Of a DNA stretch of 41,090 bases, positions 3,088-38,295 are shown one piece after another. Numbering within the stretch: position 1 is the first letter of the stretch; the number at the start of each line of letters is the position of its first letter. The notes beneath the pieces were generated by a model. The model made no database searches. It saw only the letters and a program-made list of their open reading frames with translations, and had not been told where the DNA came from. A program made the position numbers and the translations under genes. Source of the DNA: a virus. Taxonomy: Duplodnaviria > Heunggongvirae > Uroviricota > Caudoviricetes. The stretch lies in IMG/VR virus record IMGVR_UViG_2563366960_000010; one strand, 5' to 3'.

Positions 3088-3368
3088 ACTTTCTCCTGTT
3101 TACTATCTATAAGCCAGTCAATTATTGATGACTAAACCCGCATAGTAAACCATATATGAATCATTATTGTTCCATATCATATATCTCAATAAAAGTACTA
3201 ATGATTTTACAGAACGAGCCAGCAGAGTGGGGGCAGTTGTACAGGAACCATAGACTTAATTTTGTATTTAATAATGCTATGGTGTAATAAACCTGAACAT
3301 GTATTTAAAATACGTACTGATTCATGATAGAATTCAAAGATAACTTTTCACAAACTCCGTTTTTGATA

Positions 3369-6617: not shown

Positions 6618-6632
6618 TTACCTTTCAGGTAA
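6618..6632. promoter_or_regulatory. Operator-like 15-bp palindrome TTACCT-N3-AGGTAA
   Basis: Perfect inverted repeat TTACCTTTCAGGTAA upstream of the LexA box and the small antirepressor-like gene. Confidence 0.55.
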
Positions 6633-6669
6633 TTTGCAAAACGTGCTGGATAGCAAACAAATTATTTGA

Positions 6670-6689
6670 TACTGTATAAATATACAGTT
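6670..6689. promoter_or_regulatory. LexA (SOS) box
   Basis: TACTGTATAAATATACAGTT is a near-perfect match to the CTGT-N8-ACAG consensus, 20 nt upstream of the ATG at 6709. Confidence 0.7.
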
Positions 6690-6708: not shown

Positions 6709-6966
6709 ATGCAGCAGTATCACTATCCACTGGAAGACGGATTTACCGAAAGGATTCACACGCCGGGAGGCGTCAGGTCACTGGTGGAGGGATCGCACTT
6801 GATGAAATTACTCCGGGATCTCGATAAGGATGGATTTAATGTCGATGGCCCACTTGCCGAACTGACTGCACTGATTAACTACGTCACCAGCTCACAGATG
6901 TCTATGCAGGATCTGCAAACACATCTCGACTATTGTGCCGAACAATTACGAAAACAAACCCGGTAA
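6709..6966 (+). CDS. Small protein homologous to the C-terminal domain of the antirepressor at 8115-8825; candidate SOS-controlled antirepressor or modulator
   Basis: 85 aa from ATG 6709 with SD GGAG. By eye about 40% identical to the last ~80 aa of the Ant ORF (shared IH.P.GV, LM.LL, DG..V.G..AEL, QTH). Confidence 0.6.
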   Translation: MQQYHYPLEDGFTERIHTPGGVRSLVEGSHLMKLLRDLDKDGFNVDGPLAELTALINYVTSSQMSMQDLQTHLDYCAEQLRKQTR

Positions 6967-6988: not shown

Positions 6989-7717
6989 CTATCGTTTCGC
7001 TTTGTGCTCGTCCCAGCACGTTTTGCACCATGCCATTAAGCCGTCCGCATTTTGATTATTAGGGTAAAAGCTGGTCCGTTTTCTGCGGACATTACAAATT
7101 GGGCACCACTTCATATGGCGTGTATTCTTTGGGCCATCGAGACACCTTGCACACCACTTAGTCAATCCATCTGGATTTTTTGACGATTTCCGGAATTTGT
7201 CATATGGAAGGTTTATTCTGCATCGCAAACACTGCTTGCGGCCACTTGAAACTCTGTTAGCTGATTCTTCTTTTGGCGGCGATACAGAAGGTATTCTTGC
7301 TGGCTCTGATACTGCCTGAGGTGCTTTTTTAGATGACTGAGACGATATGTCATCACCAGGGAATCTTCCATGATATGCCGGACGCATTGATACTCCAGGT
7401 GGAAGCTCAGCTGTAAACGGCTTTGGCTGAATCAGTTGCCTCTCTTTTGCTAACTCCTGCTGTTTACAATATGTCTGGATTACCGCACTATCATAAGCAG
7501 GAGGTGCGGAAATATTAGGCGCATTACCTCCAGTTTTTTGAAACTGAGTAGAGGTGTGTTCTATCACCTGTGTACGATTAATCGTTATCTCCCCATCTTC
7601 GGTCTTTATCGTTTTGTTATGATTAACGACCGTACGATCAGAGATCTTAGTCTTGTTCTGGTTGATAACGTAAATAATCACCGCAACCACACCAACAACT
7701 ATCCAGAAAACTTCCAT
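6989..7717 (-). CDS. Membrane-anchored protein with tandem CxxC zinc-ribbon repeats; candidate superinfection-exclusion factor
   Basis: 242 aa; N-terminal TM helix, Pro/Ser-rich linker, C-terminal twofold repeat C-x2-C ... DGL..WC-x2-C; SD GAGGA upstream; operator palindrome just upstream. Confidence 0.55.
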   Translation of the reverse strand: MEVFWIVVGVVAVIIYVINQNKTKISDRTVVNHNKTIKTEDGEITINRTQVIEHTSTQFQKTGGNAPNISAPPAYDSAVIQTYCKQQELAKERQLIQPKPFTAELPPGVSMRPAYHGRFPGDDISSQSSKKAPQAVSEPARIPSVSPPKEESANRVSSGRKQCLRCRINLPYDKFRKSSKNPDGLTKWCARCLDGPKNTRHMKWCPICNVRRKRTSFYPNNQNADGLMAWCKTCWDEHKAKR

Positions 7718-7830: not shown

Positions 7831-7845
7831 TTACCTTTGCGGTAA
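7831..7845. promoter_or_regulatory. Operator-like palindrome TTACCTTTGCGGTAA (one mismatch)
   Basis: Near-perfect copy preceded by candidate -35/-10 elements (TTGATT ... TATCAT); upstream of the structured leader before ant. Confidence 0.5.
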
Positions 7846-7935
7846 ATTTACATCGCACTCCTCTTGTGCCATAGTAATCGGGCACTGGCAAAATCCAGTG
7901 CCGGGATTGGCGTCCCGGGTTACTAAGTGGCGCAT

Positions 7936-7959
7936 ACCACGCCAGACGTGGTTTTTTTA
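7936..7959 (+). terminator. Intrinsic terminator inside the leader upstream of the antirepressor gene
   Basis: Stem ACCACG / CGTGGT with 5-nt loop followed by T7; preceded by a strong hairpin GGCACTGG / CCAGTGCC at 7881-7902. Confidence 0.6.
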
Positions 7960-8114
7960 TGCGTTAAGCACAGCTATATCCGAATTATGGTGGGCTGGGC
8001 AGGGGTCCGAAAGGACGCCGGTACCACTTAGGCCGGTACGCCAACCTTGTCCAGTTCACCACCAGTAATTGGCGTTGCGGTGGTGATTAAAATCACTAAG
8101 TGGAGATAACCACC

Positions 8115-8825
8115 ATGGCTAATGCTCAAACTTCCATCTTCAAATTTGAATCTGTTAACCCTATCCGTTCCATCATTATCGATGGCCAACCATGGTTTGT
8201 AGCCCAAGACGTTTGTAGTGCGCTGCGTATCCAAAACGTCACCCAAGCACTTGAAAAACTGGATGATGATGAAAGGTCTATGTTCAACATAGGGCATGAA
8301 CATCGTGCAATTTTTGACAGCCGAGTAAAAGAGATCAACATCATCTCCGAGTCAGGCCTCTACACACTGATCCTCCGCTGCCGCGACGCAGTGACACCAG
8401 GCACTATCCCCTACCGCTTTCGTAAATGGGTTACGGGTGAGGTTCTTCCTCAGATCCGCCGCACCGGAAGCTACATTAAAAACTCGCTCCCGCAGGAAGA
8501 ACGCATAAAGATGGTTGCCGACCAGGTGGCCAACGCCACGGCGTCAGCAGTAATGCAGGCGATGAAGATAGAGAACAAAACCTACAGCGCCCCACTGAAT
8601 CCCGGCTACCGCAGCCTGATTCATTCGCCGTCTGGTGTTCTCGGCCTGACGGAGAACTCACTGCTGATGAATCTGCTGAACCAGTTACAGGACGACGGGC
8701 ACGACGTATCGGGCGCGGCGGCGGAGCTGACCACCATGTTCTGCTACATCGTCGGTGTGAGCAAATGCCTGCGTGATATCCAGACCCACGCGGAATACAT
8801 CAACGACAAGGCAGGGTTCTTCTGA
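8115..8825 (+). CDS. ant: Antirepressor, Bro-N/KilA-N family N-terminal domain
   Basis: 236 aa from ATG 8115 with SD GGAG; N-terminal Bro-N pattern (IFKFE...IRSIIIDGQPWFVAQDV); C-terminal domain paralogous to the 85-aa ORF. Confidence 0.75.
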   Translation: MANAQTSIFKFESVNPIRSIIIDGQPWFVAQDVCSALRIQNVTQALEKLDDDERSMFNIGHEHRAIFDSRVKEINIISESGLYTLILRCRDAVTPGTIPYRFRKWVTGEVLPQIRRTGSYIKNSLPQEERIKMVADQVANATASAVMQAMKIENKTYSAPLNPGYRSLIHSPSGVLGLTENSLLMNLLNQLQDDGHDVSGAAAELTTMFCYIVGVSKCLRDIQTHAEYINDKAGFF

Positions 8826-8833
8826 CGGGCGGT

Positions 8834-8860
8834 GGCACAGGGATGTGCCTTTAAATAATT
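8834..8860 (+). terminator. Weak terminator-like hairpin after ant
   Basis: Stem GGCACA / TGTGCC then TTTAAATAATT; short T-run, so weak. Confidence 0.3.
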
Positions 8861-8897
8861 CTGTACAGATTGCAGACTGTGGGTGAATAGCGTACTA

Positions 8898-8912
8898 TTA
8901 CCTTAAAGGTAA
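8898..8912. promoter_or_regulatory. Operator-like palindrome TTACCTTAAAGGTAA abutting the SD of the 55-aa gene
   Basis: Perfect copy immediately followed by AGGAGG and ATG 8925. Confidence 0.55.
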
Positions 8913-8924
8913 AGGAGGCGCGAT

Positions 8925-9092
8925 ATGACAGCGTTGAAAAATCGTACTCAGCACAATGAACAAGCCAAGCAATGCTGGGATGTCATTGGAAAAGTTATGC
9001 TTGGCCGCGCAAGCAAAGAGCGCGACAAGGATATGGTTTACCAGACAGGAACATCTTTCAGCGACTTCAAGGCGGCATTTCGCTCCAAATAG
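8925..9092 (+). CDS. Small basic protein (55 aa), first gene of an accessory two-gene cassette
   Basis: ATG with perfect SD AGGAGG at 6-nt spacing; below the 60-aa cutoff of the ORF track; no family recognised. Confidence 0.5.
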   Translation: MTALKNRTQHNEQAKQCWDVIGKVMLGRASKERDKDMVYQTGTSFSDFKAAFRSK

Positions 9093-9112
9093 AAGCACAT
9101 CAGGAGTTTTCC

Positions 9113-9553
9113 TTGAAGTTTAACATTAGAATATCTAATAGTTTTCTACATGGGGAAAGCAACACCCCTTTCGCTGTAGACGGACCTTTCCTTACTGATG
9201 ATGAAATAAAAATCATACAAAGTTTTTTAGAGGATGTTGCCAATGGAAGGGCGCTTGTTGGAAAAAACAAGCCCTCGTGGGTTGATGATAACCATGATAA
9301 AATTCCCGGCTCAGACAATTATGAGCAAGAGAATTATTGGCATTATCATTGTGGGCCAACATGGTATCCAAACACATTTAAGAATTATACCATTAACTTA
9401 AATTTCAACCCTGGCGGAAGGCATTCTAATGAATGCATTCATTATGCAAAAAATGATAATGAAATTGTCATTGTTGGATTTTCAAGAGAACACATACCTT
9501 TCCTTTCATCAGATGGAAACAACAATCCGCTTTTTAATGATGAAGAAGAATAG
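9113..9553 (+). CDS. Hypothetical 146-aa protein in AT-rich cargo region
   Basis: TTG start with SD CAGGAG 6 nt upstream; region markedly AT-rich versus neighbours; Asn/Asp-rich, acidic tail; terminator follows directly. Confidence 0.5.
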   Translation: MKFNIRISNSFLHGESNTPFAVDGPFLTDDEIKIIQSFLEDVANGRALVGKNKPSWVDDNHDKIPGSDNYEQENYWHYHCGPTWYPNTFKNYTINLNFNPGGRHSNECIHYAKNDNEIVIVGFSREHIPFLSSDGNNNPLFNDEEE

Positions 9554-9999: not shown

Positions 10000-12474
10000 T
10001 TATTGCGGAGTGACATCCTGTGGTCGCCACCAGTATGTCTGGTTAAACTCTTTCTTCGAACGTTGCTCCATTTTACGCAAATAACCTGGTGAAAAATACT
10101 CCTGCATCTGGTTAAAGATCATGTGATCGAGAGCCGCCTTCAAGTACCAGAGATTCGCACCTGGCATCAGACCTTTCCCCAGCTTAACCAGATCACCACC
10201 AGTCTGCTCACTCTTCCCTTCCACAGCATTTAACGGTATGCCCTGAGCAATCTTCACTACGTCATCAACCAGACCAGCTACCGGGCCAAGCATCGACGCC
10301 AGCGCGCCGCTTCCGTACCTAGTGTGATCTGACAATAAAAAGTCACCGTAAAGGCCAAGACCACCACCTTTCAGTAGAGCACCAAGCCAAAATTTAGCAG
10401 CATCTTCTCCTGTCATCTCGCGAGGATTACGACCAGACGCAAGGTCGTTAAGTTGCTGCGACAAAGCGCCAAGAATGGTCGTACTGGCAATAAACGTCGC
10501 AATATATGCCGCACGCCCACCAGCAGACGGCATACCCATAGCGCGTGACCAGTGACGCATAACCACCGAGATAGGGAACGATTTAAACAGGAAAACACTT
10601 CTCGTTAATTCACCTTTCCATGTTCCACGCTGAATACCAGAACCGGTTATCAGTTGCTCACGTGCTCCCGGTGTAATAACAGCCATATCAACTTCTTCAG
10701 TTACGGCACCGAGCAGTTTACGCATTGCCTCAAATTTCACGCGTTCAGGCTCACCAAGATGTTTAACTGCTGAATCAGGGATACGCATAATGCTTTCCGG
10801 TGTCAGCATCGTATTATTACCGTTCCCCCAGTCCTCCTGTTTCGCCAGCTTCCATACGCTCCAGTCTGTGTCAGTAATCCCTTTGCTTTTCAGGATACGA
10901 AAATCAGAGTCATCGAGGCTACGAAGGTCTGGTGTACGTGACACTACTTCTCCCAGGCTTCCCATCATGGTTACGCCATAGGCGCGCTTGTGCGCATCTG
11001 ACCATGCTGTAAGCCCACTGGCACGCATTACCGCCGTTGCCGCCCAACGAGACACTGACGGCCCCATATTATCCATCGCCCAGCGGTTAACGCTGCCAAG
11101 TAGAGATTCCATCGCCAGACCAGCGCGGCGCGCCCGCGCAAGTTCTGTACGGTTCGTTGGGTCCATAGCTTCAAGCTGGTTGCGGAATAACTGGTTCATT
11201 GGAAGGTTGGTAACCTTCGCAGACAGATACATGGTTCCAAGATCAGAGAACGATGACAGCAACGCGGATCCGAGTCTGCTGGCAACCAGCCAGTTGCGGA
11301 TATTGTCAGACCATCGCGCGATGTGCGGATTCGCTACAGGCTGTGTCTTTCCGGAAATAAAGTTGTACAGATTCTCTGTGTTGTTCGCCAGCCGCTCGAC
11401 TTTACCGGTTTTACTCGGGTTAGCTGTTGCCGTTTCTGCCTTCACCTGATCAAGAAGAGAGCGGAAAACATGATCGGGGTTTGGGCCATATGTTTCCACC
11501 AGTGCAATATCTTTACTGATACCTTCCAGGTGACCGACCATGATTTCCCATAGAGAGCGATCGCCATAAAGTTGCTGATATTGCAGATAGGAATCTGCAT
11601 CTTTGAAATGTATCTGTCGTGATGCATTACCACGGTTAGCACGTGCGCCGGAAATTCGCATTCCGGTATCAGTAAGCTTATTCAGCCCACCAGTAGCGAT
11701 CGTGTTATAAGCCTCTCCAAGAAATGAAGACAACTCGGCATCGTTCATCAGTTGTCCATCGGCTCGGATATAATATTTGCGATCCAGCTTACCTATAACA
11801 TCGCTAACCCACTTATCCTTTGATACTGCCCCAACCTTTTCCATAGAATGATGTTGAGGGATCCCCCAGTTTTCGAGATAGCCAATGTCCCCACCAGCAT
11901 CATTAAACCGGCGGCGCAGCAGCTCTGTAACTTCTCTCCACGCCTTAGCACCGTTTCTTGCTTTAGCATTGCCAGTATTTTGCCCCCGCATTTCATATAC
12001 CAGGTCACGTACGCCCGCTTCATCTTCAAACAGACCAAAAAAGCGAGGATCAACTGCTTCGAATGCCTCCTGCAATTGACTCAATGCATAATCACGGGTG
12101 GCTTTTGTTCTGGATTCAACAGAGAGGAAATTAGATTTACCGTCTGCATTAAAAGCTATAGTACGGTTAAGAGCGCCAAGTTTCCCATCAGCCCCTTGAT
12201 AGCTATTGATAAATTTATCCAATCTCTGACGCGCGGCTATAGTGAGAGCCACACGACGTTTCTTTAATGCCGCTTCTCGCTGTAATTCTTCAGATGCCAA
12301 TTGTGCTGCTCGATATAGCCGCTCTGATTCGGAAAGTTGTCTCCACGACATCGGGTCATCACGAGCAATGGAGCGCATATTTCGATAAATGCGGTCTTCA
12401 ATGTTCTGTATTTCTCGCGCCGTTAACGTGCGCTGCGCCGCCTGCTGGACCGCTTGTATACATTCCTGTCTCAT
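10000..12474 (-). CDS. Internal virion / DNA-ejection protein (C-terminal part of a T7 gp16-like function)
   Basis: 824 aa, follows the 600-aa gene with 5-nt spacing; position and size in T7-like virion module. Confidence 0.55.
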   Translation of the reverse strand: MRQECIQAVQQAAQRTLTAREIQNIEDRIYRNMRSIARDDPMSWRQLSESERLYRAAQLASEELQREAALKKRRVALTIAARQRLDKFINSYQGADGKLGALNRTIAFNADGKSNFLSVESRTKATRDYALSQLQEAFEAVDPRFFGLFEDEAGVRDLVYEMRGQNTGNAKARNGAKAWREVTELLRRRFNDAGGDIGYLENWGIPQHHSMEKVGAVSKDKWVSDVIGKLDRKYYIRADGQLMNDAELSSFLGEAYNTIATGGLNKLTDTGMRISGARANRGNASRQIHFKDADSYLQYQQLYGDRSLWEIMVGHLEGISKDIALVETYGPNPDHVFRSLLDQVKAETATANPSKTGKVERLANNTENLYNFISGKTQPVANPHIARWSDNIRNWLVASRLGSALLSSFSDLGTMYLSAKVTNLPMNQLFRNQLEAMDPTNRTELARARRAGLAMESLLGSVNRWAMDNMGPSVSRWAATAVMRASGLTAWSDAHKRAYGVTMMGSLGEVVSRTPDLRSLDDSDFRILKSKGITDTDWSVWKLAKQEDWGNGNNTMLTPESIMRIPDSAVKHLGEPERVKFEAMRKLLGAVTEEVDMAVITPGAREQLITGSGIQRGTWKGELTRSVFLFKSFPISVVMRHWSRAMGMPSAGGRAAYIATFIASTTILGALSQQLNDLASGRNPREMTGEDAAKFWLGALLKGGGLGLYGDFLLSDHTRYGSGALASMLGPVAGLVDDVVKIAQGIPLNAVEGKSEQTGGDLVKLGKGLMPGANLWYLKAALDHMIFNQMQEYFSPGYLRKMEQRSKKEFNQTYWWRPQDVTPQ

Positions 12475-17808: not shown

Positions 17809-20279
17809 CAGAACCCACCAACAGTAAGGCGAGGAATAACGGCAAGAACAGACAGCGGCAACGGATCAAGCTGACGGATTTTTACACGTCCGTTTTTGCC
17901 CCAGTTACTGTCCAGTTTCACTTCTACTTTTCCGGTAGCATCATCAACAGGATCATCGTAGAACTCGAATTCACGCTGTGGATATTCGTACCATTTACCG
18001 CCGGGCGTAGTCGCCCAGATGCCGCGACTGGCATTCACAACCAGAGTAACGGACGGGATCACCTGTTTTTTGTCCAGCAGCGTTTCCTGTCCGTTAATGT
18101 TGATATCCAGTGTTTCGAATTCAGCAGTTATTGGCAGGCCGATGTGCACTACAGCCCCCGGTGATTCCAGCGTGACGGCACATCCGGAAACCACTTTCTG
18201 TGGTTCCACGTTCGCATCAGAGAGAATGTTTACGGTCTGGCCTTCAAGATGAGACAGGCCTCCAAATGTCCGGCGCGCCATCTGCCAGTTCGTGGTGGCC
18301 ACATTCCTGAGGGATGGCGGGACGTTCCTGTTAGCACGAACCACTACAGCGGTATTGCTGGTTACAGAAATAATGTCGCAACGTAATTCTTTTGACACCT
18401 CATCGCCAGTATCAGGATCAGTTCCGGTATAAGGGAACTGTAGTTGCGCGCCGACATCACTACTGGTGAAGTACGCACCACCAGAAACACTGATTGTATA
18501 TTCCGCGCGGTAATCCCATTCGCCAGAACCACCAGTGATGATCATCGTTCTGTCAGACGTATTTCTTCCATCATAGCTAAGGCCAGAATCAACAAAGAAA
18601 GCATCTTCATCGCTGGTAAATAAACGGCTGGACAGTCGCTCGATGTATCTCACTGTTTGCCCGTTAACGGTTCGGTTAACGACGAAATACACCGCATCTT
18701 CATTGCCTTCGCTGATACTGCATGTGCTTTCATATTTTCCGGTACTGGATTGTGGTGCCCATGCAAAAACCTGCTGATCACGCAAATAGGTCATCACCAG
18801 TAATTTACCGTCATCACGGATGCAGAAGGCGCTGGAGTAAGGGACTATTGAGAAGCACCAGTCAACAATGCTGTGCTTCTGAAAAAGATGATTGGCAAGG
18901 ATAGTAAGGTCGTTCCCCTGATAGCCGTCAACATCGAATGAGTAGGCCAGATCACGGACAACACTGCCTTTCTCCTGGACGAACAGAGCAATATTCGCCA
19001 CGGCAATTGGTGGGACATTGCTCGAGCCATTTGATCCCTGAGAGCTGAATGCAAATGATGATGGGGTAAGCACTTTGTTCTGGTCGCCAGTGATGACGTA
19101 CTCACCTCCGGAAGTCAGCGCCACCAGCGAACCAACATCAATCAGGTGACGGATCTCATTAACCTGACGCCCGGCATAGGTGTAGATAATTCTGTCGTCA
19201 TCCTGCGTAGGATTGCTTTTGCCAAAATCCTTATAATCCCCAGTACGGCTGGCCCAGATAGTCTGAGGGAACGCAGTCGATGCGGCGAAGTAAAGACGCT
19301 GTTGATAATAAACAACAGTGCCAGGATAACCATTAACACTGTTCCAGGCATATTTAGCCCATTTATAGCTGGCATTATCCTCGCCAACGACCTGCGAAGG
19401 GATATAGGAAATCACCTCGGCAGTTGCAGTAGTGCCATTTGCAGCAGTGATACGGGCAATGCCAAAACCACTGTGCAGATACTCCCACTCAATGCCAGTA
19501 TCATCATCACCGGATCCGCCCCAGCCATCCCATGATGTGCCTTCTGTATGCGAAGGGCGCAAAGTACCTGTTTTGCCTGCTGTAACGGCGCGATAGTAGT
19601 TACTGTCTGCACGGCGAATATCGCCAATCGACGTACTCTTACTGGTTTCCCATACAGGTACTGAATCCACTGCAGGCTGTTCCAGATAGAACAATTTGCC
19701 TACCTGCTCCGCGCCAAAAATAGAGACGCTTGCCGTTAACGTAATTGTCCCGGTGCTGGCGCTGGCATAAACCGTCACTGACTCATCAATATTGATATCT
19801 TCAAATGGCCCGTTCTTCGTTACCACATCAACCAGTTGCCAGTTGTCATGCGCATAGCGACGCAACTCTTTCGGCGGGTATGCCGGATGAACAAGCGTAA
19901 GCACGTCTGCGCTTTGCGTGAATTTAATTCGGAACAGATCGGCTTCAGTATATGGCGTGGCAATTTCATAAATAACATTGCTGCTGTTCAGCACCAACGC
20001 ACCATCTTTGATAACGCGCATGTACTGGTGTCCGAACTCCAGAGCATAGGTCTGAACCGTCGAGAACTGGAACGGGATCAGGCGGCATTTCCGATTTGGG
20101 TATTTGGCGGCACCGACAAAACGCGTACCAGGTCGATTCTCAACGCCGCCATACTGCCGCACGATAAAGTTATCGCACTTGCGCAATGCCACCTGGTACT
20201 TCGCCATGTCGATACGTCCGTACAACGACGGTCCAATCTCACCACCAGCAAAGCTGGGCTGGATCCAACTGATAGCCAT
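17808..20279 (-). CDS. Tail tubular protein B (nozzle), T7 gp12-like
   Basis: 823 aa, size and position match T7 gp12 (794 aa); immediately downstream of adaptor-like gene. Confidence 0.55.
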   Translation of the reverse strand: MAISWIQPSFAGGEIGPSLYGRIDMAKYQVALRKCDNFIVRQYGGVENRPGTRFVGAAKYPNRKCRLIPFQFSTVQTYALEFGHQYMRVIKDGALVLNSSNVIYEIATPYTEADLFRIKFTQSADVLTLVHPAYPPKELRRYAHDNWQLVDVVTKNGPFEDINIDESVTVYASASTGTITLTASVSIFGAEQVGKLFYLEQPAVDSVPVWETSKSTSIGDIRRADSNYYRAVTAGKTGTLRPSHTEGTSWDGWGGSGDDDTGIEWEYLHSGFGIARITAANGTTATAEVISYIPSQVVGEDNASYKWAKYAWNSVNGYPGTVVYYQQRLYFAASTAFPQTIWASRTGDYKDFGKSNPTQDDDRIIYTYAGRQVNEIRHLIDVGSLVALTSGGEYVITGDQNKVLTPSSFAFSSQGSNGSSNVPPIAVANIALFVQEKGSVVRDLAYSFDVDGYQGNDLTILANHLFQKHSIVDWCFSIVPYSSAFCIRDDGKLLVMTYLRDQQVFAWAPQSSTGKYESTCSISEGNEDAVYFVVNRTVNGQTVRYIERLSSRLFTSDEDAFFVDSGLSYDGRNTSDRTMIITGGSGEWDYRAEYTISVSGGAYFTSSDVGAQLQFPYTGTDPDTGDEVSKELRCDIISVTSNTAVVVRANRNVPPSLRNVATTNWQMARRTFGGLSHLEGQTVNILSDANVEPQKVVSGCAVTLESPGAVVHIGLPITAEFETLDININGQETLLDKKQVIPSVTLVVNASRGIWATTPGGKWYEYPQREFEFYDDPVDDATGKVEVKLDSNWGKNGRVKIRQLDPLPLSVLAVIPRLTVGGF

Positions 20280-22041: not shown

Positions 22042-22092
22042 CTTCTTTCTCCATTAGTGGGTCTGTTACGACCCACAGGTTAATAACAGGCG

Positions 22093-26075: not shown

Positions 26076-26090
26076 TTACCTTTCAGGTAA
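26076..26090. promoter_or_regulatory. Operator-like palindrome TTACCTTTCAGGTAA upstream of the tRNA island
   Basis: Perfect copy; a TTGACA hexamer lies 17 nt upstream. Confidence 0.5.
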
Positions 26091-26412: not shown

Positions 26413-26489
26413 GTGGCATTAGCTCAGTTGGACAGAGCAACCGCCTTCTAAGCGGTTGGTCGCAGGTTCGAATCCTGCATGCCACGCCA
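26413..26489 (+). tRNA. tRNA-Arg (anticodon UCU), phage-encoded, argU-like
   Basis: 77-nt cloverleaf folded by hand: acceptor GTGGCAT/ATGCCAC, T-arm GCAGG-TTCGAAT-CCTGC, anticodon loop CTTCTAA, discriminator G, encoded CCA; core resembles E. coli argU but stems differ. Confidence 0.85.
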
Positions 26490-28588: not shown

Positions 28589-29181
28589 TGATTACCATCC
28601 TGACGTTCTTTGAGTCGCTTCCTGGCTGCTGCTATGCGATCAGCAATTGTCACATTCACATTAACATCCAGACGTTCTTTGAACGCGTTGACATCAACAT
28701 GCTTACCAATCAGCTCAAGGTTCTTCACCTTGTCAGGCCATTTAATTTTTTTGAGGATTGTCTCTATCGAATCCTCGTTCATGTTCATGATGGTCGATGA
28801 CAGATCAAAGCCACTAAGCGTAGTGCGCCAGATTTTCGGCCACTCACGGATTGGTTTAAGGCTCCCATCGTCGTTGAGGATGTCGATCACGTCCATCTGG
28901 TCGATCTCCACCAGGCGCATGAGAACGTAATCAGCACTGACGCGCATTCGTTTGTTGCGCTCCTCCATCAACTCGGCAATCCGTTTTTGAATGCGTTCAT
29001 CGCGCATCATGACACTGGCTTTAACTGCCGCTGTATTTGGGGAGAATCCTGCGTTAATCGCTGCCTGAGTCTGGTTTTCAGGCGTTTTGATGTATGACTG
29101 GCAATAAGCCTCCTGCATTGCTGTTAGTGGCTTAAATTGCGTTGATTTGCGTTTATAGGTTTTAGGTTCAGCAGGCATCAT
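28585..29181 (-). CDS. terS: Terminase small subunit
   Basis: Upstream of and overlapping terL; N-terminal HTH-like segment; start taken at ATG 29181, the track ORF extends to a TTG at 29259. Confidence 0.55.
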   Translation of the reverse strand: MMPAEPKTYKRKSTQFKPLTAMQEAYCQSYIKTPENQTQAAINAGFSPNTAAVKASVMMRDERIQKRIAELMEERNKRMRVSADYVLMRLVEIDQMDVIDILNDDGSLKPIREWPKIWRTTLSGFDLSSTIMNMNEDSIETILKKIKWPDKVKNLELIGKHVDVNAFKERLDVNVNVTIADRIAAARKRLKERQDGNQ

Positions 29182-29291
29182 AACCACCGTGGTAATAGTT
29201 ACCGTTGTGGTAATAGTACCATGCAAAATAAAGCCGCCATAGTTGGCGGCAGTATTCAAAACCCATCAAATTCATCATGCATAATCTACTC

Positions 29292-31744: not shown

Positions 31745-32346
31745 TGGTTGCCTCCTTTGCGAAGCTCTGCGGCAAAGTCAACTAACCACTCGGTCATTTC
31801 AACCTTCCCTACCAGGTCTGAACCAGGAAACATACAGCAATCACTCTGCGCCGCTTTGAAATCCTTATACTCATATTCCTGAGCCACCAGATTTTTTGCA
31901 GCTTCTATAACAGCATCCACCCCCTGCGCCCGTACTTCAGCCAGGAAAGCGTCGGTGGCTTGGGTTTCGATATCGTTAATTTCAGGAAGAATCTCTTCCC
32001 ATGTAGCGATATCGCCATTCAAATGCCATCCGGCAATTCCACTGGAGTTATCCGCAACACTGCGAACGGCTTCAATAGTTTCATGCATTGCCGCATTCTC
32101 CGCTGCCAGCGCCGAAAACTTCTCGTGTGCCAACTTAACAGCCGCATCAGCCTGCTTAATTGACTCAATCGCTTTCTGCTGGTCTTCGGCCAGCGCATTA
32201 GCACGCACCAGTTGCACTTCCAGTTGCGTTGCCAAATCGCTGATCAGCTTTGCCACACTGCGCATATCAACGGCACCACATTCTGCTTTCAGTTCCGAAG
32301 CCATCTCATGCCAGGCGGCAACTAACCCTTTGATATTACTTTCCAT
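31741..32346 (-). CDS. Coiled-coil protein, possibly Ead/Ea22-like
   Basis: 201 aa, helical, overlaps downstream gene start; assignment by position and composition. Confidence 0.4.
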   Translation of the reverse strand: MESNIKGLVAAWHEMASELKAECGAVDMRSVAKLISDLATQLEVQLVRANALAEDQQKAIESIKQADAAVKLAHEKFSALAAENAAMHETIEAVRSVADNSSGIAGWHLNGDIATWEEILPEINDIETQATDAFLAEVRAQGVDAVIEAAKNLVAQEYEYKDFKAAQSDCCMFPGSDLVGKVEMTEWLVDFAAELRKGGNQ

Positions 32347-32755: not shown

Positions 32756-32770
32756 TTACCTCTAAGGTAA
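32756..32770. promoter_or_regulatory. Operator-like palindrome TTACCTCTAAGGTAA
   Basis: Perfect half-sites; on the minus strand the AGGTAA half lies 3 nt before the DUF1064 ATG. Confidence 0.55.
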
Positions 32771-32817
32771 TTAAAAACCATATAAGACACGAAATCAATA
32801 GAGTTTAGAATATTTTG

Positions 32818-32832
32818 TTACCTTGTAGGTAA
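32818..32832. promoter_or_regulatory. Operator-like palindrome TTACCTTGTAGGTAA
   Basis: Perfect half-sites 47 bp from the previous copy, in the intergenic region between the P-like and DUF1064 genes. Confidence 0.55.
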
Positions 32833-33646: not shown

Positions 33647-34448
33647 CCCACACCCCTTCTATCCAGTCAGTGTTATTCCAGTCAAGCTCATCGCTTTTCC
33701 CGGCATTTTTTGATTTTCCCCTGATATGATTTACGTGCCTGGCGAATTTTTGTTCCCACTGAACCTGCGTGAACACTTTGCCCTCAGCCATCCAGTAATC
33801 CCGGAATGCAGCAAGTTCAGCAGGTGTAAATTCCGGTTCCGGCAGGGCCGTTCCCCACAGCGCAGCACGCCGCCGAAAATCTGGCGACGGTAGCCAGCCA
33901 TCTGTCATCGGAAATTTCCCGATGGGTTCACTCAGGCCATCCAGAAATTCAGGTTCTGCCACCTGCAACGGCGTACTGTTCGCTTCACTGGTCGGAGCAC
34001 CCTCGCGCACGTGCGCTATGTGTGGGGTTTTATATATATCTTCCTCTTCCTCTTCCTCTGGTAACTCCTTTTGTAACGCTGTTGGCGTTACTTTTTGCGT
34101 TACTCGTTTTCTATGCTCTGCCACTCTTCTATTCGTAAGTGCACGTTTTTTCGATGATTCTCCATTATGTCGCTCAAAGTTTGGAAGAATTAGTTTGCCG
34201 TCATGATAAGCAAGCCATCCGACGCTAATGAGGGCGTCAGCAAATCCTGTAATAAAAGCGAGTCTATCAAGTACTCCTTTTGTAACGCTGCCAGCGTTAC
34301 CGTCTATTGTTTGCTGGTCAGCCCATGCCCATATACGAACCAGCTTTCCAAGAACAGCATCTGGATCAATACCCAGAATTTCTGCTATCTGAAAAATTTC
34401 AGGTTTATCAGGAGTGATAACTTCAACCTTAATCCAGCTGCTTGCCAT
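33618..34448 (-). CDS. Replication initiation protein, DUF1376/YdaU-like with DnaT-like C-terminal domain
   Basis: About 276 aa from ATG 34448 with SD GAGGGG; acidic EEEEEED linker; C-terminal segment resembles DnaT-type domains; upstream of P-like gene. Confidence 0.55.
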   Translation of the reverse strand: MASSWIKVEVITPDKPEIFQIAEILGIDPDAVLGKLVRIWAWADQQTIDGNAGSVTKGVLDRLAFITGFADALISVGWLAYHDGKLILPNFERHNGESSKKRALTNRRVAEHRKRVTQKVTPTALQKELPEEEEEEDIYKTPHIAHVREGAPTSEANSTPLQVAEPEFLDGLSEPIGKFPMTDGWLPSPDFRRRAALWGTALPEPEFTPAELAAFRDYWMAEGKVFTQVQWEQKFARHVNHIRGKSKNAGKSDELDWNNTDWIEGVWDEINSRTSQ

Positions 34449-34641: not shown

Positions 34642-34740
34642 TTTTTCCGCCCCTTTTTGTTATTGATATTGGCTATTTTGCACAATTGGAAAATTTGATC
34701 AACCAGATTTGGTTTTTTATTACCCTTAAGGTGCGAATAG

Positions 34741-34789: not shown

Positions 34790-35020
34790 TCATGAGTAGA
34801 AGAAGTATGCCAGTTCTGCTTTTGAGCGCAGCCATTGTCTTGTTTTACAGGCTTTAAAAAGCCCATTCATCAATACTTTACCTGGCATTTTGCGCTTGCC
34901 TGTTAAGTGAGTCTGGATATAGTGACTCGTCGTTCCGGCTTCCTGTGCGAAGGCTTCACGCTCATCCGGAGTAAGTGCAAGCCAGTGCTTTTTGAAATCG
35001 AAATGTCCGTTATCGCTCAT
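34790..35020 (-). CDS. Cro-like HTH DNA-binding protein
   Basis: 76 aa, HTH-like segment, divergent from repressor gene across an operator-containing region; first gene of the replication operon. Confidence 0.55.
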   Translation of the reverse strand: MSDNGHFDFKKHWLALTPDEREAFAQEAGTTSHYIQTHLTGKRKMPGKVLMNGLFKACKTRQWLRSKAELAYFFYS

Positions 35021-35056
35021 AGCTATTGCCTGATATTTATTTCAGATAATAAATAT

Positions 35057-35119
35057 TCACCCATAAGGTAACAAAAATCAAGGATAGTTACCTATGAGGT
35101 GCATTTACCTGTTGGGTAA
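35057..35119. promoter_or_regulatory. Immunity-region operator cluster (three sites) between divergent cro-like and repressor genes
   Basis: TCACCCATAAGGTAA (35057-35071), TTACCTATGAGGTGC (35088-35102), TTACCTGTTGGGTAA (35105-35119); degenerate versions of the 15-bp palindrome. Confidence 0.6.
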
Positions 35120-35174
35120 TATTGCTTTAAATTGAATCATCTACTGATTCATATATGAGGCGATTTTCCAGAAA

Positions 35175-35759
35175 ATGAAAAGTATCCAGGACGTCCGCAG
35201 GCAAAATCTCAACGACTTGATCGACCGTGAATTCAATGGTGTTCAGACGCGGATGGCAGAAAAACTTGGAACTCAGGCAAATCTGGTAAACCGCTGGGCT
35301 CTTGGCAAGAAGGTTATCGGCGACCAGGTTGCACGAAAAATTGAAGCTGCCGCCAATAAACCCCGTAACTGGCTTGATATTGATCGTTCGCTTTCTCAGG
35401 AGGGTTTTCAGCCTGTCGGCCCGAGCGATATAGGTCAGCTGGCGGCTCACAACCTGGAACGCTGGATGAGCGAAAGCCGCGACCTTTCAACACAGGGAAA
35501 ACTTCACCGCGCATCCGGCGTCGCCCAGGTGACAATCAGCCGCCTGTTAAACAATGAGGTCAGCGTTTCCATTTCCACCCTGGAGAATGTTGCATCCGCA
35601 TTCGGGCGTCACGGATATGAACTACTGATTCACCCGCACGACCCTGCGACTATCAACTATGACCGCTCACGCTACGCATTGTTACCCGAAACCGAGAAAG
35701 CAAAGATCGAAAGTTACATTGAATTTGTCATCAACCAGAACGAAAAAAGCAAACAATAA
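35175..35759 (+). CDS. Prophage repressor candidate with tandem XRE-type HTH domains and no S24 peptidase domain
   Basis: 194 aa; two HTH-like segments; no Ser-Lys autocleavage domain recognisable; divergent from the cro-like gene. Confidence 0.6.
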   Translation: MKSIQDVRRQNLNDLIDREFNGVQTRMAEKLGTQANLVNRWALGKKVIGDQVARKIEAAANKPRNWLDIDRSLSQEGFQPVGPSDIGQLAAHNLERWMSESRDLSTQGKLHRASGVAQVTISRLLNNEVSVSISTLENVASAFGRHGYELLIHPHDPATINYDRSRYALLPETEKAKIESYIEFVINQNEKSKQ

Positions 35760-35780
35760 AACTATAGTTTTCAGTAAGTA

Positions 35781-35805
35781 AGCCGCCTCATGGCGGCTTT
35801 TTTAT
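35781..35805 (+). terminator. Intrinsic terminator after the repressor gene
   Basis: Stem AGCCGCC / GGCGGCT followed by TTTTTTATT. Confidence 0.65.
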
Positions 35806-35816
35806 TGCCAGATAGA

Positions 35817-35831
35817 TTACCTTACGGGTAA
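35817..35831. promoter_or_regulatory. Operator-like palindrome TTACCTTACGGGTAA (one mismatch) at the early-left promoter
   Basis: Lies just upstream of TTGACA (35851-35856); GGTAAC half-site repeats at 35888-35907 follow. Confidence 0.5.
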
Positions 35832-35912
35832 TTTTTTTAACTCATATCTATTGACACCAAACCAAATAAGCATAATTATTACCCCAACGGTAACAGACCG
35901 AGGTAACAAGTT

Positions 35913-36067: not shown

Positions 36068-36367
36068 ATGAACGTTAATCAGCAGAAAAATCTTCAAAAA
36101 ATCATGCTGGCATTCGACAAGGACTACCGCCTGTCAGAACAGCTATATGACCGACAAGTTGAACTGATTGAGAGCATCCGACTTCATCAACTGTCCTCAA
36201 CTTTCGACGTTGTAACAGGCAAAGGCGTTCGTCAGGAAGTGCTGGAGGCTGCTAAAGACAGCCCTGAGTTCGAAGAACTGATGGATGCCTACCGGCGCGA
36301 GGCAATGGCAATTATAGCGCGCTGGGATCTGGCGGATCAGCTTGATGGGCAGAGGGACGCGGCATGA
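36068..36367 (+). CDS. Hypothetical early protein (99 aa) preceding the recombination genes
   Basis: ATG 36068 with SD GGGAGGG; stop overlaps the exonuclease start (ATGA). Confidence 0.45.
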   Translation: MNVNQQKNLQKIMLAFDKDYRLSEQLYDRQVELIESIRLHQLSSTFDVVTGKGVRQEVLEAAKDSPEFEELMDAYRREAMAIIARWDLADQLDGQRDAA

Positions 36368-37263
36368 TGCGGAACGCTGGAATCATGGATAGAACAAAAT
36401 ACATCGGAGGAAGCGATGTTGCAGGGATTCTTGGAATTAGCCCATGGCGCACCCCGCTTGAGGTTTATCTGGATAAGGTCCAGCCACGTGTCAAACCAGT
36501 AGACCCAAGCAAGCAGAAAGTTTTCACGCGTGGCCAGCGTATGGAGCCATACGTAATAGACCTGCTTTCTGAGGAAACAGGGATGGAAATCGTTCATCGC
36601 GGAAACCGCTATATCCACCGTGATTACGATTTTATTGCAGCTGAGATCGATGCAGAAGCAGCGTCAGGCGAGAACATTGAGATCAAAACAGTTAGTCCGT
36701 TCAAAGCCAAAGAATGGGGAGAAATCCAGACAGATGCAATTCCTGTGCATTACACGGCCCAGGCCATGCACGGGTTGATGGTTACAAACAAACAGGTATG
36801 CGTTTTCGGTGTGCTTATCGGTGGCGACGACTTCCGAATCTATCGGGTTGAGCGTGATGAAGAAACTATCCAGGCGATCTTAGAAAAAGAAATCGCTTTC
36901 TGGGACCGAGTGAAAAATCTTAACCCGCCGGAAGCTACCAGCGTAAGCGATGTATCGCTGATGTTTGAGAAAGATGCCGGGACAAGTATCGAGGCTGACG
37001 GAAAGGCACTCGCACTATTCAACGATCTACGAGACATGAAATCACGCAGAAAATCACTGGAAGAAGAAATAGCTATATCAGAAGAGAAGCTGAAGATGTA
37101 CATGCAAGAGCACTCAGTCCTGACCCTGGACGGAAAGCCGCTCTGCACATGGAAATCTCAGATCAGCAACAGATTCGACCAGAAGCTATTCCAGTCAGTA
37201 CACCCTGAGTTATTCGAAAAATTCAAAACAACAACGACACAACGCGTCTTCAGAATGAAGTAA
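36364..37263 (+). CDS. YqaJ-like viral recombinase exonuclease (lambda Exo-type)
   Basis: 299 aa; N-terminal DRTKYIGGSDVAGILGISPWRTPLEVYLDK matches the YqaJ pattern; directly upstream of recT. Confidence 0.8.
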   Translation: MMRNAGIMDRTKYIGGSDVAGILGISPWRTPLEVYLDKVQPRVKPVDPSKQKVFTRGQRMEPYVIDLLSEETGMEIVHRGNRYIHRDYDFIAAEIDAEAASGENIEIKTVSPFKAKEWGEIQTDAIPVHYTAQAMHGLMVTNKQVCVFGVLIGGDDFRIYRVERDEETIQAILEKEIAFWDRVKNLNPPEATSVSDVSLMFEKDAGTSIEADGKALALFNDLRDMKSRRKSLEEEIAISEEKLKMYMQEHSVLTLDGKPLCTWKSQISNRFDQKLFQSVHPELFEKFKTTTTQRVFRMK

Positions 37264-37272
37264 GGAGAAAAA

Positions 37273-38295
37273 ATGTCTATCAATGCACTTAAGGCAGCGG
37301 CTACCGGTAACCAAGTTGCACATCATAATGAGAAACCAACAACTCTGGCCGGACTTCTGGCAGACCCAAAAATTAAAGCTCAGATGGCTTTGGCACTTCC
37401 AAAGCACATGACAGCAGACCGTCTGGCGCGCATAGCAACCACAGAGATCAGAAAGGTTCCAAAACTTGCATCATGCGACCAAGCCAGCTTCCTGGGGGCA
37501 ATTATGCAATGTGCCCAATTGGGTCTTGAACCAGGCGGAGCTCTTGGACACGCTTACCTGATACCGTTCGACAAACGCCAGAAAGTAAATGGAAGATGGG
37601 AAACCGTATCTACAGAAGCACAGCTGATTATCGGCTATCGCGGAATGATTGACCTTGCCCGCCGCTCTGGGCAGATCCTGAGTATCTCGGCTCGTACCGT
37701 ACATACAAACGACAAATTCAGCTACTCATACGGCCTGGAAGAAACGCTCGAGCATTTACCTTGCGAAACAGGTGACCGCGGAGAATTAACGCACGTTTAC
37801 GCCGTTGCACGACTGAAAGATGGCGGAGTCCAATTTGAAGTTATGAGCCGGGCAGACGTTGAGAAAGTTCGTGCACTGAGCAAAGCCGGTAGCAGTGGCC
37901 CATGGGTTGATCACTTCGATGAGATGGCTAAAAAAACAGTAATTCGCCGACTGTTCAAATATCTTCCTGTTTCTATTGAAATGCAGAAGGCTGTTGTTAT
38001 GGATGAGCGCGCTGAAGCTGGACTTAGCCAAGATAACGCAGCTGTTATCACTGGTGAATATTCCGTAGTTGACGATGAGCGTCAACACCTGTCGCCAATT
38101 TCAGATTCAGAACGAGAAGAAGCTCGAGAATATATCATCGCGATACTTAATAGCCTGGATCCATCTGCTGAAGATGCAAAAACGATGTTCAAGCGCGCTG
38201 AAAATGAAATTAACACCATGGCTGAAAAGCTCGGTGATGAATATCACCAAAAATTCATGATGACGCTTAACGATATGCGTCCAGAATTCGAGTAA
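37273..38295 (+). CDS. recT: RecT-family single-strand annealing protein
   Basis: 340 aa with extended identity to Rac RecT as recalled (LGLEPG.ALGHAYL.PF, LIIGYRGMIDLARRSGQI, THVYAVARLKDGG.QFEVM, GPWV.H..EMAKKT.IRRLFKYLPVSIE). Confidence 0.9.
   Translation: MSINALKAAATGNQVAHHNEKPTTLAGLLADPKIKAQMALALPKHMTADRLARIATTEIRKVPKLASCDQASFLGAIMQCAQLGLEPGGALGHAYLIPFDKRQKVNGRWETVSTEAQLIIGYRGMIDLARRSGQILSISARTVHTNDKFSYSYGLEETLEHLPCETGDRGELTHVYAVARLKDGGVQFEVMSRADVEKVRALSKAGSSGPWVDHFDEMAKKTVIRRLFKYLPVSIEMQKAVVMDERAEAGLSQDNAAVITGEYSVVDDERQHLSPISDSEREEAREYIIAILNSLDPSAEDAKTMFKRAENEINTMAEKLGDEYHQKFMMTLNDMRPEFE

Follow-up and report, generated by a model that had tools for sequence, protein, structure and literature searches.

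The immunity region of the phage studied here is best explained as a switch operated by antirepression of the SPC32H type, in which a small antirepressor, Ant, would inactivate the repressor, Rep; on the grounds of sequence homology and analogy with the solved system we put the probability of this reading at about 85%. Antirepressor-mediated rather than RecA-cleavage-mediated induction, the central claim of the original prediction, is supported because both partners are present in the genome and related by homology to Rep and Ant of SPC32H, a pair that has been crystallised (PDB 5D50, 5D4Z; Kim & Ryu 2013 J Virol; Kim et al. 2016 PNAS). The genes and the control element on which this assignment primarily rests are:

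35175..35759, plus strand: rep, the immunity repressor gene, an ATG ORF of 194 aa with Pfam, PHROG and PDB matches
35780..35799, plus strand: predicted intrinsic terminator of rep; in phiV10, too, a terminator is annotated here
6709..6966, plus strand: ant, encoding the small antirepressor of 85 aa (PDB 5D50_E match; equivalent to PhiV10p24)
6670..6689, unstranded: LexA box TACTGTATAAATATACAGTT, 18/20 to consensus, 20 bp upstream of the ant ORF

The repressor is homologous over its full length to the ‘Repressor’ chain of the SPC32H complex (PDB 5D50_A; E 3.5e-42, query residues 1-190 against chain residues 2-197), and Ant is nearly identical to its SPC32H counterpart, the ‘Anti-repressor protein’ of the same Rep-Ant structure (PDB 5D50_E; E 4e-47, residues 2-84, i.e. 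83 residues with few substitutions). The SPC32H genome record names the homologous genes rep and ant, and both phages share the gene order and belong to the same genus. Judged from its sequence, the 41-kb window, by which we mean the whole analysed stretch of 41,090 nucleotides, represents the whole, or nearly the whole, genome of a temperate podophage of the epsilon15/phiV10 type (genus Uetakevirus). Between positions 34400 and 36100 its DNA is 97-98% identical to that of the E. coli phages Phi05_1387, HEMP4, vB_EcoP_ZX5, TL-2011b and phiV10, and TL-2011b and phiV10 align with most of the window.

Two stretches of the 194-aa protein match Pfam HTH_3 (E 1.2e-9), the best of them at residues 106-147, the N-terminal segment (about residues 20-61) is also recognised by YdaS/HTH-type models, and PHROG repressor families match both halves, residues 1-76 being covered. 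The structure of the isolated SPC32H Rep fragment 92-198 (PDB 5D4Z_A) is found with E 3.6e-20. SPC32H Rep starts with a DNA-binding domain (DBD) at the N-terminus, continues with a middle domain for dimerisation (MDD) and ends in a p53-like tetramerisation domain (CAD/TetDloop), to which Ant binds (PMC9986798). By homology, the present Rep is predicted to comprise an HTH DNA-binding domain (about residues 1-72), a linker (73-88), an HTH-fold domain in the middle for dimerisation (about 89-158) and a terminal part (about 159-194), and its last ca. 35 residues would constitute the tetramerisation and Ant-binding domain. The tandem of XRE-like HTH motifs in the original prediction therefore holds in so far as two HTH-like segments exist, but not as a pair of DNA readers: because the Pfam match at 106-147 falls within the part homologous to the MDD, the second segment is, by analogy with the solved homologue, a dimerisation domain. 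On sequence grounds Rep is better described as a single DNA-reading HTH combined with an HTH-fold oligomerisation module. A single-sequence AlphaFold model of Rep was of low confidence (mean pLDDT 44.8, pTM 0.22).

Rep is about 99-100% identical to the proteins of phiV10, ZX5 (ORF21, 99.5%), TL-2011b and HEMP4 and 78% to that of Enterobacter phage Tyrion, and the identity falls to 43-45% for the repressors of epsilon15, SPC32H and the Klebsiella Uetakeviruses. Compared with SPC32H Rep the identity amounts to 43% overall, with 53% in the N-terminal, 33% in the middle and 47% in the C-terminal domain, and the recognition-helix motif NLVNRW is invariant across four compared Reps of 43-78% identity. 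Because the overall value is only 43%, the oligomeric state of Rep and its contacts with Ant are taken as extrapolations from SPC32H.

The predicted antirepressor paralog under LexA control was recovered as the ORF behind the box TACTGTATAAATATACAGTT, the sole strong LexA box within the window. A LexA box 5' of ant is common to the window, phiV10 and SPC32H. Two further CTGT-N8-ACAG sequences, at 22063 and 26605, were rejected as LexA boxes since they agree with the consensus at only 9/20 and 12/20 positions and 0.58 such sites are expected by chance. The paralogy concerns a Bro-N fusion protein, treated below, the C-terminal ca. 75 residues of which are 42% identical to Ant and match PDB 5D50_E with E 3e-13.

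Rep and an ORF of 76 aa diverge across a spacer of 154 bp, within which three copies of the 15-bp palindrome TTACC-N5-GGTAA, used here as the operator pattern, are located. Further copies accompany the rightward early promoter on the other side of rep:

34790..35020, minus strand: cro-like gene of 76 aa (equivalent to PhiV10p41, epsilon15 gp39 type), divergent from rep
35057..35071, unstranded: cro-proximal operator TCACCCATAAGGTAA, 1 mismatch, inside the spacer of the leftward promoter candidate
35088..35102, unstranded: middle operator TTACCTATGAGGTGC, 2 mismatches
35105..35119, unstranded: rep-proximal operator TTACCTGTTGGGTAA, exact, at a distance of exactly 2 bp from the middle operator
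35851-35879 (region 35817..35893), plus strand: rightward early promoter TTGACA-17-AATTAT, 10/12 matches, 3' of the rep terminator

The three operator copies in the rep/cro spacer, two of them separated by only 2 bp, had been noted beforehand and were confirmed, and an unbiased repeat finder independently recovers them. Their O-16bp-O-2bp-O geometry and their half-sites are kept in the window, Tyrion, Klebsiella phage BUCT711 and SPC32H, and the flanks diverge. Both around the rightward promoter and between rep and cro, the TTACC-N5-GGTAA operators of SPC32H keep the spacing seen here, and the LexA box before ant is shared as well; the central 5 bp, however, consist of A/T only at the rep-flanking sites of SPC32H and are mixed in the present phage. 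For leftward transcription a promoter scanner proposes TTGTTA-17-TATTAT (35074->35046). An invariant block AAAAATCAA, conserved in the four phages, adjoins the cro-proximal operator and reads TTGATT on the minus strand, which might serve as an alternative -35 element of this promoter candidate. Operators at 35817-35831 and 35879-35893, with centres 62 bp apart, bracket the rightward early promoter, a layout also present in SPC32H and BUCT711.

Concerning the gene opposite to rep, the divergent arrangement in the original prediction was found, and the designation cro-like should be read as based on position, a match to phrog_35 (‘transcriptional repressor’, E 5.6e-13) and a conserved AGTTSHYIQTHLTG motif only. 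Searches of Pfam, NCBIfam and PDB gave zero matches for the 76-aa protein. It is 76% identical to its SPC32H counterpart; Ant is even more conserved between the two phages.

The operator pattern is not restricted to the surroundings of rep. In the window 11 exact sites were counted against 0.00 expected from 100 shuffles, and 37 matches with up to two mismatches against 11 expected. As chance alone accounts for 11 of the latter, 2-mismatch matches outside intergenic regions were discarded as background. All 11 exact operators and four degenerate ones are intergenic, and besides those described above they comprise:

6618..6632, unstranded: Rep-type operator in the spacer from which ant and the tailspike gene diverge; SPC32H counterpart at 20013
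7738 and 7831: exact operators around the gene of a 242-aa membrane protein and the second antirepressor module
8898: operator directly 3' of the promoter candidate TTGCAG-17-TACTAT, overlapping the ribosome-binding site of a small ORF
26076..26090, minus strand: exact operator upstream of the portal/structural operon; SPC32H equivalent at 3175
29181..29213, minus strand: operator doublet upstream of the small terminase gene (29199 exact, 29181 with one mismatch)
32756..32832, minus strand: operator pair 32756/32818, centres 62 bp apart, flanking a leftward promoter candidate

The terminase doublet lies 3' of a candidate extended -10 element (TGgTACTAT) and has equivalents in TL-2011b at 11590 and 11608, before terS at 11625. 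The pair 32756/32818 is located downstream of the replication genes and corresponds to SPC32H sites 35972 and 36034; SPC32H carries operators at orthologous places. Four operators share their first base with the final T of a -10-like hexamer. In sum, operators are located in the rep/cro region, at the rightward early, post-replication, terminase and putative toxin-antitoxin promoters, at the portal operon, in the ant/tailspike spacer and at the second antirepressor module. Next to operator 8898, the neighbouring gene is annotated in TL-2011b as a YafO-family toxin.

This intergenic network at promoters suggests a direct silencing by Rep of nearly all transcription units, such that Rep may clamp almost every one of them and not just the two early promoters. 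Based on site distribution, we consider this extension as possible but rather doubtful. If it were true, a single antirepressor would free early, late and accessory genes simultaneously. The pairs with a 62-bp spacing around a promoter, which is kept in SPC32H and a Klebsiella phage, would suit one Rep tetramer gripping both promoter sides with DBDs from different dimers. For SPC32H it is reported that Rep binds DNA as a tetramer, that binding of the dimer is weak, that the DBD pairs at each palindrome are proposed to stem from different Rep dimers and that tetrameric Ant disassembles the Rep tetramer (PMC9638917).

Consistent with these data the following scenario is proposed for the present phage, for which we infer DNA binding, non-cleavage and Ant action from sequence homology and from analogy with SPC32H. 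In the lysogen, Rep tetramers would bind the TTACC-N5-GGTAA palindromes, three at rep/cro, two flanking the rightward early promoter and others presumably at most promoters. Upon DNA damage, RecA-stimulated cleavage of LexA would derepress ant via the LexA box at 6670-6689, and cleavage of Rep, as judged from the SPC32H homologue, should play no part in induction. Tetrameric Ant might then bind the C-terminal domains of Rep and capture its N-terminal domains, thereby splitting the tetramer into dimers with poor DNA binding, so that the lytic promoters would fire. A second, Rep-controlled antirepressor probably reinforces the switch. In SPC32H itself, Rep reportedly remains uncleaved during the SOS response and LexA acts as the repressor of ant; the variant SPC32N is said to owe its virulent-like behaviour to a point mutation in the LexA box.

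The second antirepressor belongs to a module which is absent from SPC32H and organised as follows:

7831..8825, plus strand: second antirepressor module, in the order operator, promoter, isrK, C4 and Bro-N::Ant-like fusion
7831-7845, followed by 7847-7875, plus strand: exact operator abutting a promoter candidate
7882-7958, plus strand: isrK-like sRNA with terminator (Rfam isrK, 67.7 bits, gathering 50)
7983-8066, plus strand: C4 antisense RNA (Rfam C4, 66 bits, gathering 45)
GTG 8100 or probable ATG 8115 to 8825, plus strand: Bro-N::Ant-like fusion, 241-aa ORF (Bro-N E 1e-19)

The 250-nt leader of the Bro-N gene folds much more stably than shuffled sequences (z -4.56) with the start codon positioned within a hairpin, and the gene product is named ‘putative anti-immunity protein’ in the phiV10 record. 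The P1/P7 immI region (C4 RNA-icd-ant) resembles this module. It also matches the isrK-orf45-anrP arrangement of Gifsy-1 in having isrK/C4 RNAs upstream of an antirepressor gene and a structured leader over the start codon; unlike P1 immI and Gifsy-1, the module described here combines an SPC32H Ant-type C-terminus with a Rep-type operator abutting the promoter.

One might consider the fusion protein (8115..8825), released through the isrK/C4 switch, as the main inducer, and the small Ant as redundant or directed in trans mainly at other prophages. The Ant-type domain of the fusion, the two upstream RNAs scoring above their Rfam gathering thresholds and the start codon buried in a strongly folded leader are in line with such a role, as are the activation of anrP translation by IsrK in Gifsy-1 (PMC4825925) and the 1000-fold lower prophage titre after overexpression of the Bro-N antirepressor in ZX5, an experiment that concerned this antirepressor and not the small Ant (PMC9782041). 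However, SPC32H does without the module and yet possesses rep, ant and operators of the same kind; conservation across genera is far stronger for the small Ant with its LexA box; and the promoter of the module abuts a Rep-type operator and is probably silent until Rep is leaving the DNA, so that the module would reinforce the switch in a loop and not trigger it. We regard a leading role of the fusion protein as unlikely and the small Ant as the probable trigger, the Bro-N::Ant-like protein probably providing a second, SOS-independent or reinforcing route.

A lambda-type mechanism, in which RecA-stimulated self-cleavage inactivates the repressor and antirepressors are mere accessories, has to be considered as well. 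With lambda cI, P22 C2 and LexA the present switch shares an N-terminal HTH domain and a divergent cro-like gene, and the lambda-type likeness extends to the right-hand control region with its three operators and to further operators at the leftward-equivalent promoter. The lysogen of ZX5, which carries the same repressor, is inducible by mitomycin C (PMC9782041), a property compatible with both mechanisms. Unlike the cleavable repressors, however, Rep contains neither an S24 domain nor a cleavage site: the lack of a LexA-like S24 domain claimed in the original prediction was corroborated by domain searches in which the 194-aa protein matched no S24/LexA peptidase family even at E<=1, and neither an AG nor a CG dipeptide, as required for an Ala-Gly or Cys-Gly scissile bond, occurs anywhere in it. 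Moreover, homology to a solved non-peptidase protein covers the whole length of Rep, with the C-terminus corresponding to a tetramerisation domain of ca. 35 residues, and oligomerisation would, by analogy, be accomplished by an HTH-fold domain and a p53-like tetramerisation motif, in contrast to lambda-type repressors. Because peptidase domain and cleavage site are both absent, lambda-like self-cleavage appears very improbable and, as far as the sequence permits, is essentially excluded.

That the 194-aa protein is an antitoxin-like or accessory XRE regulator instead of the immunity repressor is hardly credible, as the weak HigA (E 0.0012) and YdaS matches of its N-terminal HTH and the ‘VapI antidote’ annotation in the BP9 record have to be set against the fact that these matches lie below the curated cut-offs, against the immunity-repressor position of the gene, divergent from the cro-like gene and between the replication and recombination operons, against the conserved operators flanking it, against the SPC32H homologue, whose gene is named rep and whose product was crystallised as ‘Repressor’, and against the overexpression data of ZX5, which support a repressor role (PMC9782041).

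Antirepression of the SPC32H kind also has relatives in logic beyond the genus. In coliphage 186, a P2-like myovirus, the LexA-controlled antirepressor Tum inactivates the non-cleavable repressor CI, neither protein being known to be related to Rep or Ant. The Gifsy-1, -2 and -3 prophages with their repressors GfoR, GtgR and GfhR share the principle of a non-cleaved repressor and a small antirepressor, directly LexA-controlled and encoded outside the immunity region (Lemire et al. 2011, PMC3121763). The likeness is one of logic only, and the Gifsy repressor/antirepressor pairs most likely interact as dimers (PMC3121763), in contrast to the tetramers of SPC32H Rep and Ant (PMC9638917).

The finding as such is not new. 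The mechanism of the switch has been published and crystallised for SPC32H, and the exact protein is already annotated as a two-HTH repressor in phiV10, where it is PhiV10p40 and the record reads ‘putative transcriptional repressor; two helix-turn-helix motifs’, and has partly been tested by overexpression in ZX5. There, overproduction of the repressor abolished free phage and lowered transcription of the holin and endolysin genes by over 99.9% (PMC9782041). Only the genome-wide operator map and the layout with two antirepressors possibly go beyond the literature. Recognition of an antirepressor-driven switch helps to predict the stresses by which these prophages are induced. As the Gifsy phages show, an antirepressor can moreover work in trans on further prophages.

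Of 5426 complete E. coli genomes, 540 (about one in ten) carry the immunity region, where the annotation reads only ‘helix-turn-helix’ protein. A scan of viral contigs for diverse relatives returned, among the 80 matches listed, only loci of 99-100% identity. Compared with phiV10, ZX5, TL-2011b and HEMP4, the accessory regions of the window are mosaic and the immunity locus is essentially unchanged. A Uetakevirus that infects E. coli is among the temperate phage species seen in 2-5% of gut viromes (PMC12629997).

Predicted operators of the Rep type, which follow the pattern TTACC-N5-GGTAA that the 194-aa immunity repressor Rep would recognise, are present not only in the immunity region but at almost all intergenic promoter regions of the window.

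6618, 7738, 7831, 8898, 26076, 29181/29199, 32756/32818, 34720 and 35817/35879: predicted Rep-type operators with the TTACC-N5-GGTAA pattern
34720-34734: degenerate operator TTACCCTTAAGGTGC, directly beyond the cro-like gene's terminator and ahead of the replication genes

Two layouts recur: either the last T of the -10 hexamer is also the first base of the operator, or the promoter is bracketed by a pair of operators 62 bp apart. Operators occupy orthologous places in Salmonella phage SPC32H and E. coli phage TL-2011b, and in Klebsiella phage BUCT711 at the promoter downstream of rep. The degenerate copy at 34720-34734 has no counterpart in SPC32H at up to one mismatch. In the spacer between ant, the gene of the small antirepressor, and the tailspike gene, a 10-bp block within 6640-6655 (TGCTGGATAG) is invariant in the window, E. 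coli phage phiV10 and SPC32H, while its flanks are variable. This block, with the operator at 6618 on one side and the LexA box on the other, could be part of the ant or tailspike promoter or the site of another regulator.

A second antirepressor is encoded behind a leader containing two RNA elements.

7831-8825: second antirepressor module, consisting of an isrK-like sRNA, a C4 antisense RNA and then the Bro-N protein
7882-7958: isrK-like sRNA, upstream of the Bro-N protein gene
7983-8066: C4 antisense RNA, upstream of the Bro-N protein gene

The start codon of the Bro-N protein gene lies within the strongly structured leader, and the protein carries an SPC32H Ant-type C-terminal domain. The DNA encoding this domain (8592-8848) is 95% identical to TL-2011b 32011-32267, the 3′ end of gp42, a separate gene annotated as 'anti-repressor Ant' which adjoins an Arc-like repressor. 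On the basis of this identity, the Rep-binding, Ant-like domain seems to be a module shuffled among differing N-terminal domains. Residues 106-192 of Rep itself, its dimerisation and tetramerisation half, show a weak, sub-threshold similarity to RstR family repressors (NCBIfam NF041951, E 8e-4). RstR is the repressor of CTXphi and is itself countered by an antirepressor.

Predicted operators also accompany two loci adjacent to the antirepressor genes.

Within 8866-9553: promoter candidate TTGCAG-17-TACTAT, with an operator directly after it
8925..9092: 55-aa ORF, its ribosome-binding site overlapped by this operator
8972..9553: 193-aa ORF, after the 55-aa ORF
6989-7717, minus strand: 242-aa protein gene; CxxC motifs recur in the product, which has a membrane helix at its N-terminus

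Pfam and NCBIfam searches at the 8866-9553 locus gave no match; the counterpart of the 193-aa ORF in TL-2011b is annotated as a YafO-family toxin, and the locus could constitute a toxin-antitoxin pair under Rep control. The 242-aa protein weakly matches Stc1 (E 3e-4), and a predicted operator is located 21 bp upstream of its start.

The remaining features concern recombination and a tRNA.

36364..37263: YqaJ/RecE-like gene, recombination module
37273..38295: RecT gene, recombination module
26413-26489, plus strand: tRNA-Arg (anticodon TCT), between the terminase and portal regions

For the recombination genes (36368-38291) megablast gives no match to either TL-2011b or phiV10, and the flanks of these genes match both phages at 97-98%; the module looks like a mosaic block that has been exchanged. 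In phiV10 a recET fusion is annotated, in contrast to the YqaJ/RecE-like and RecT genes of the window. A tRNA-Arg is likewise annotated in SPC32H, at the place equivalent to 26413-26489.
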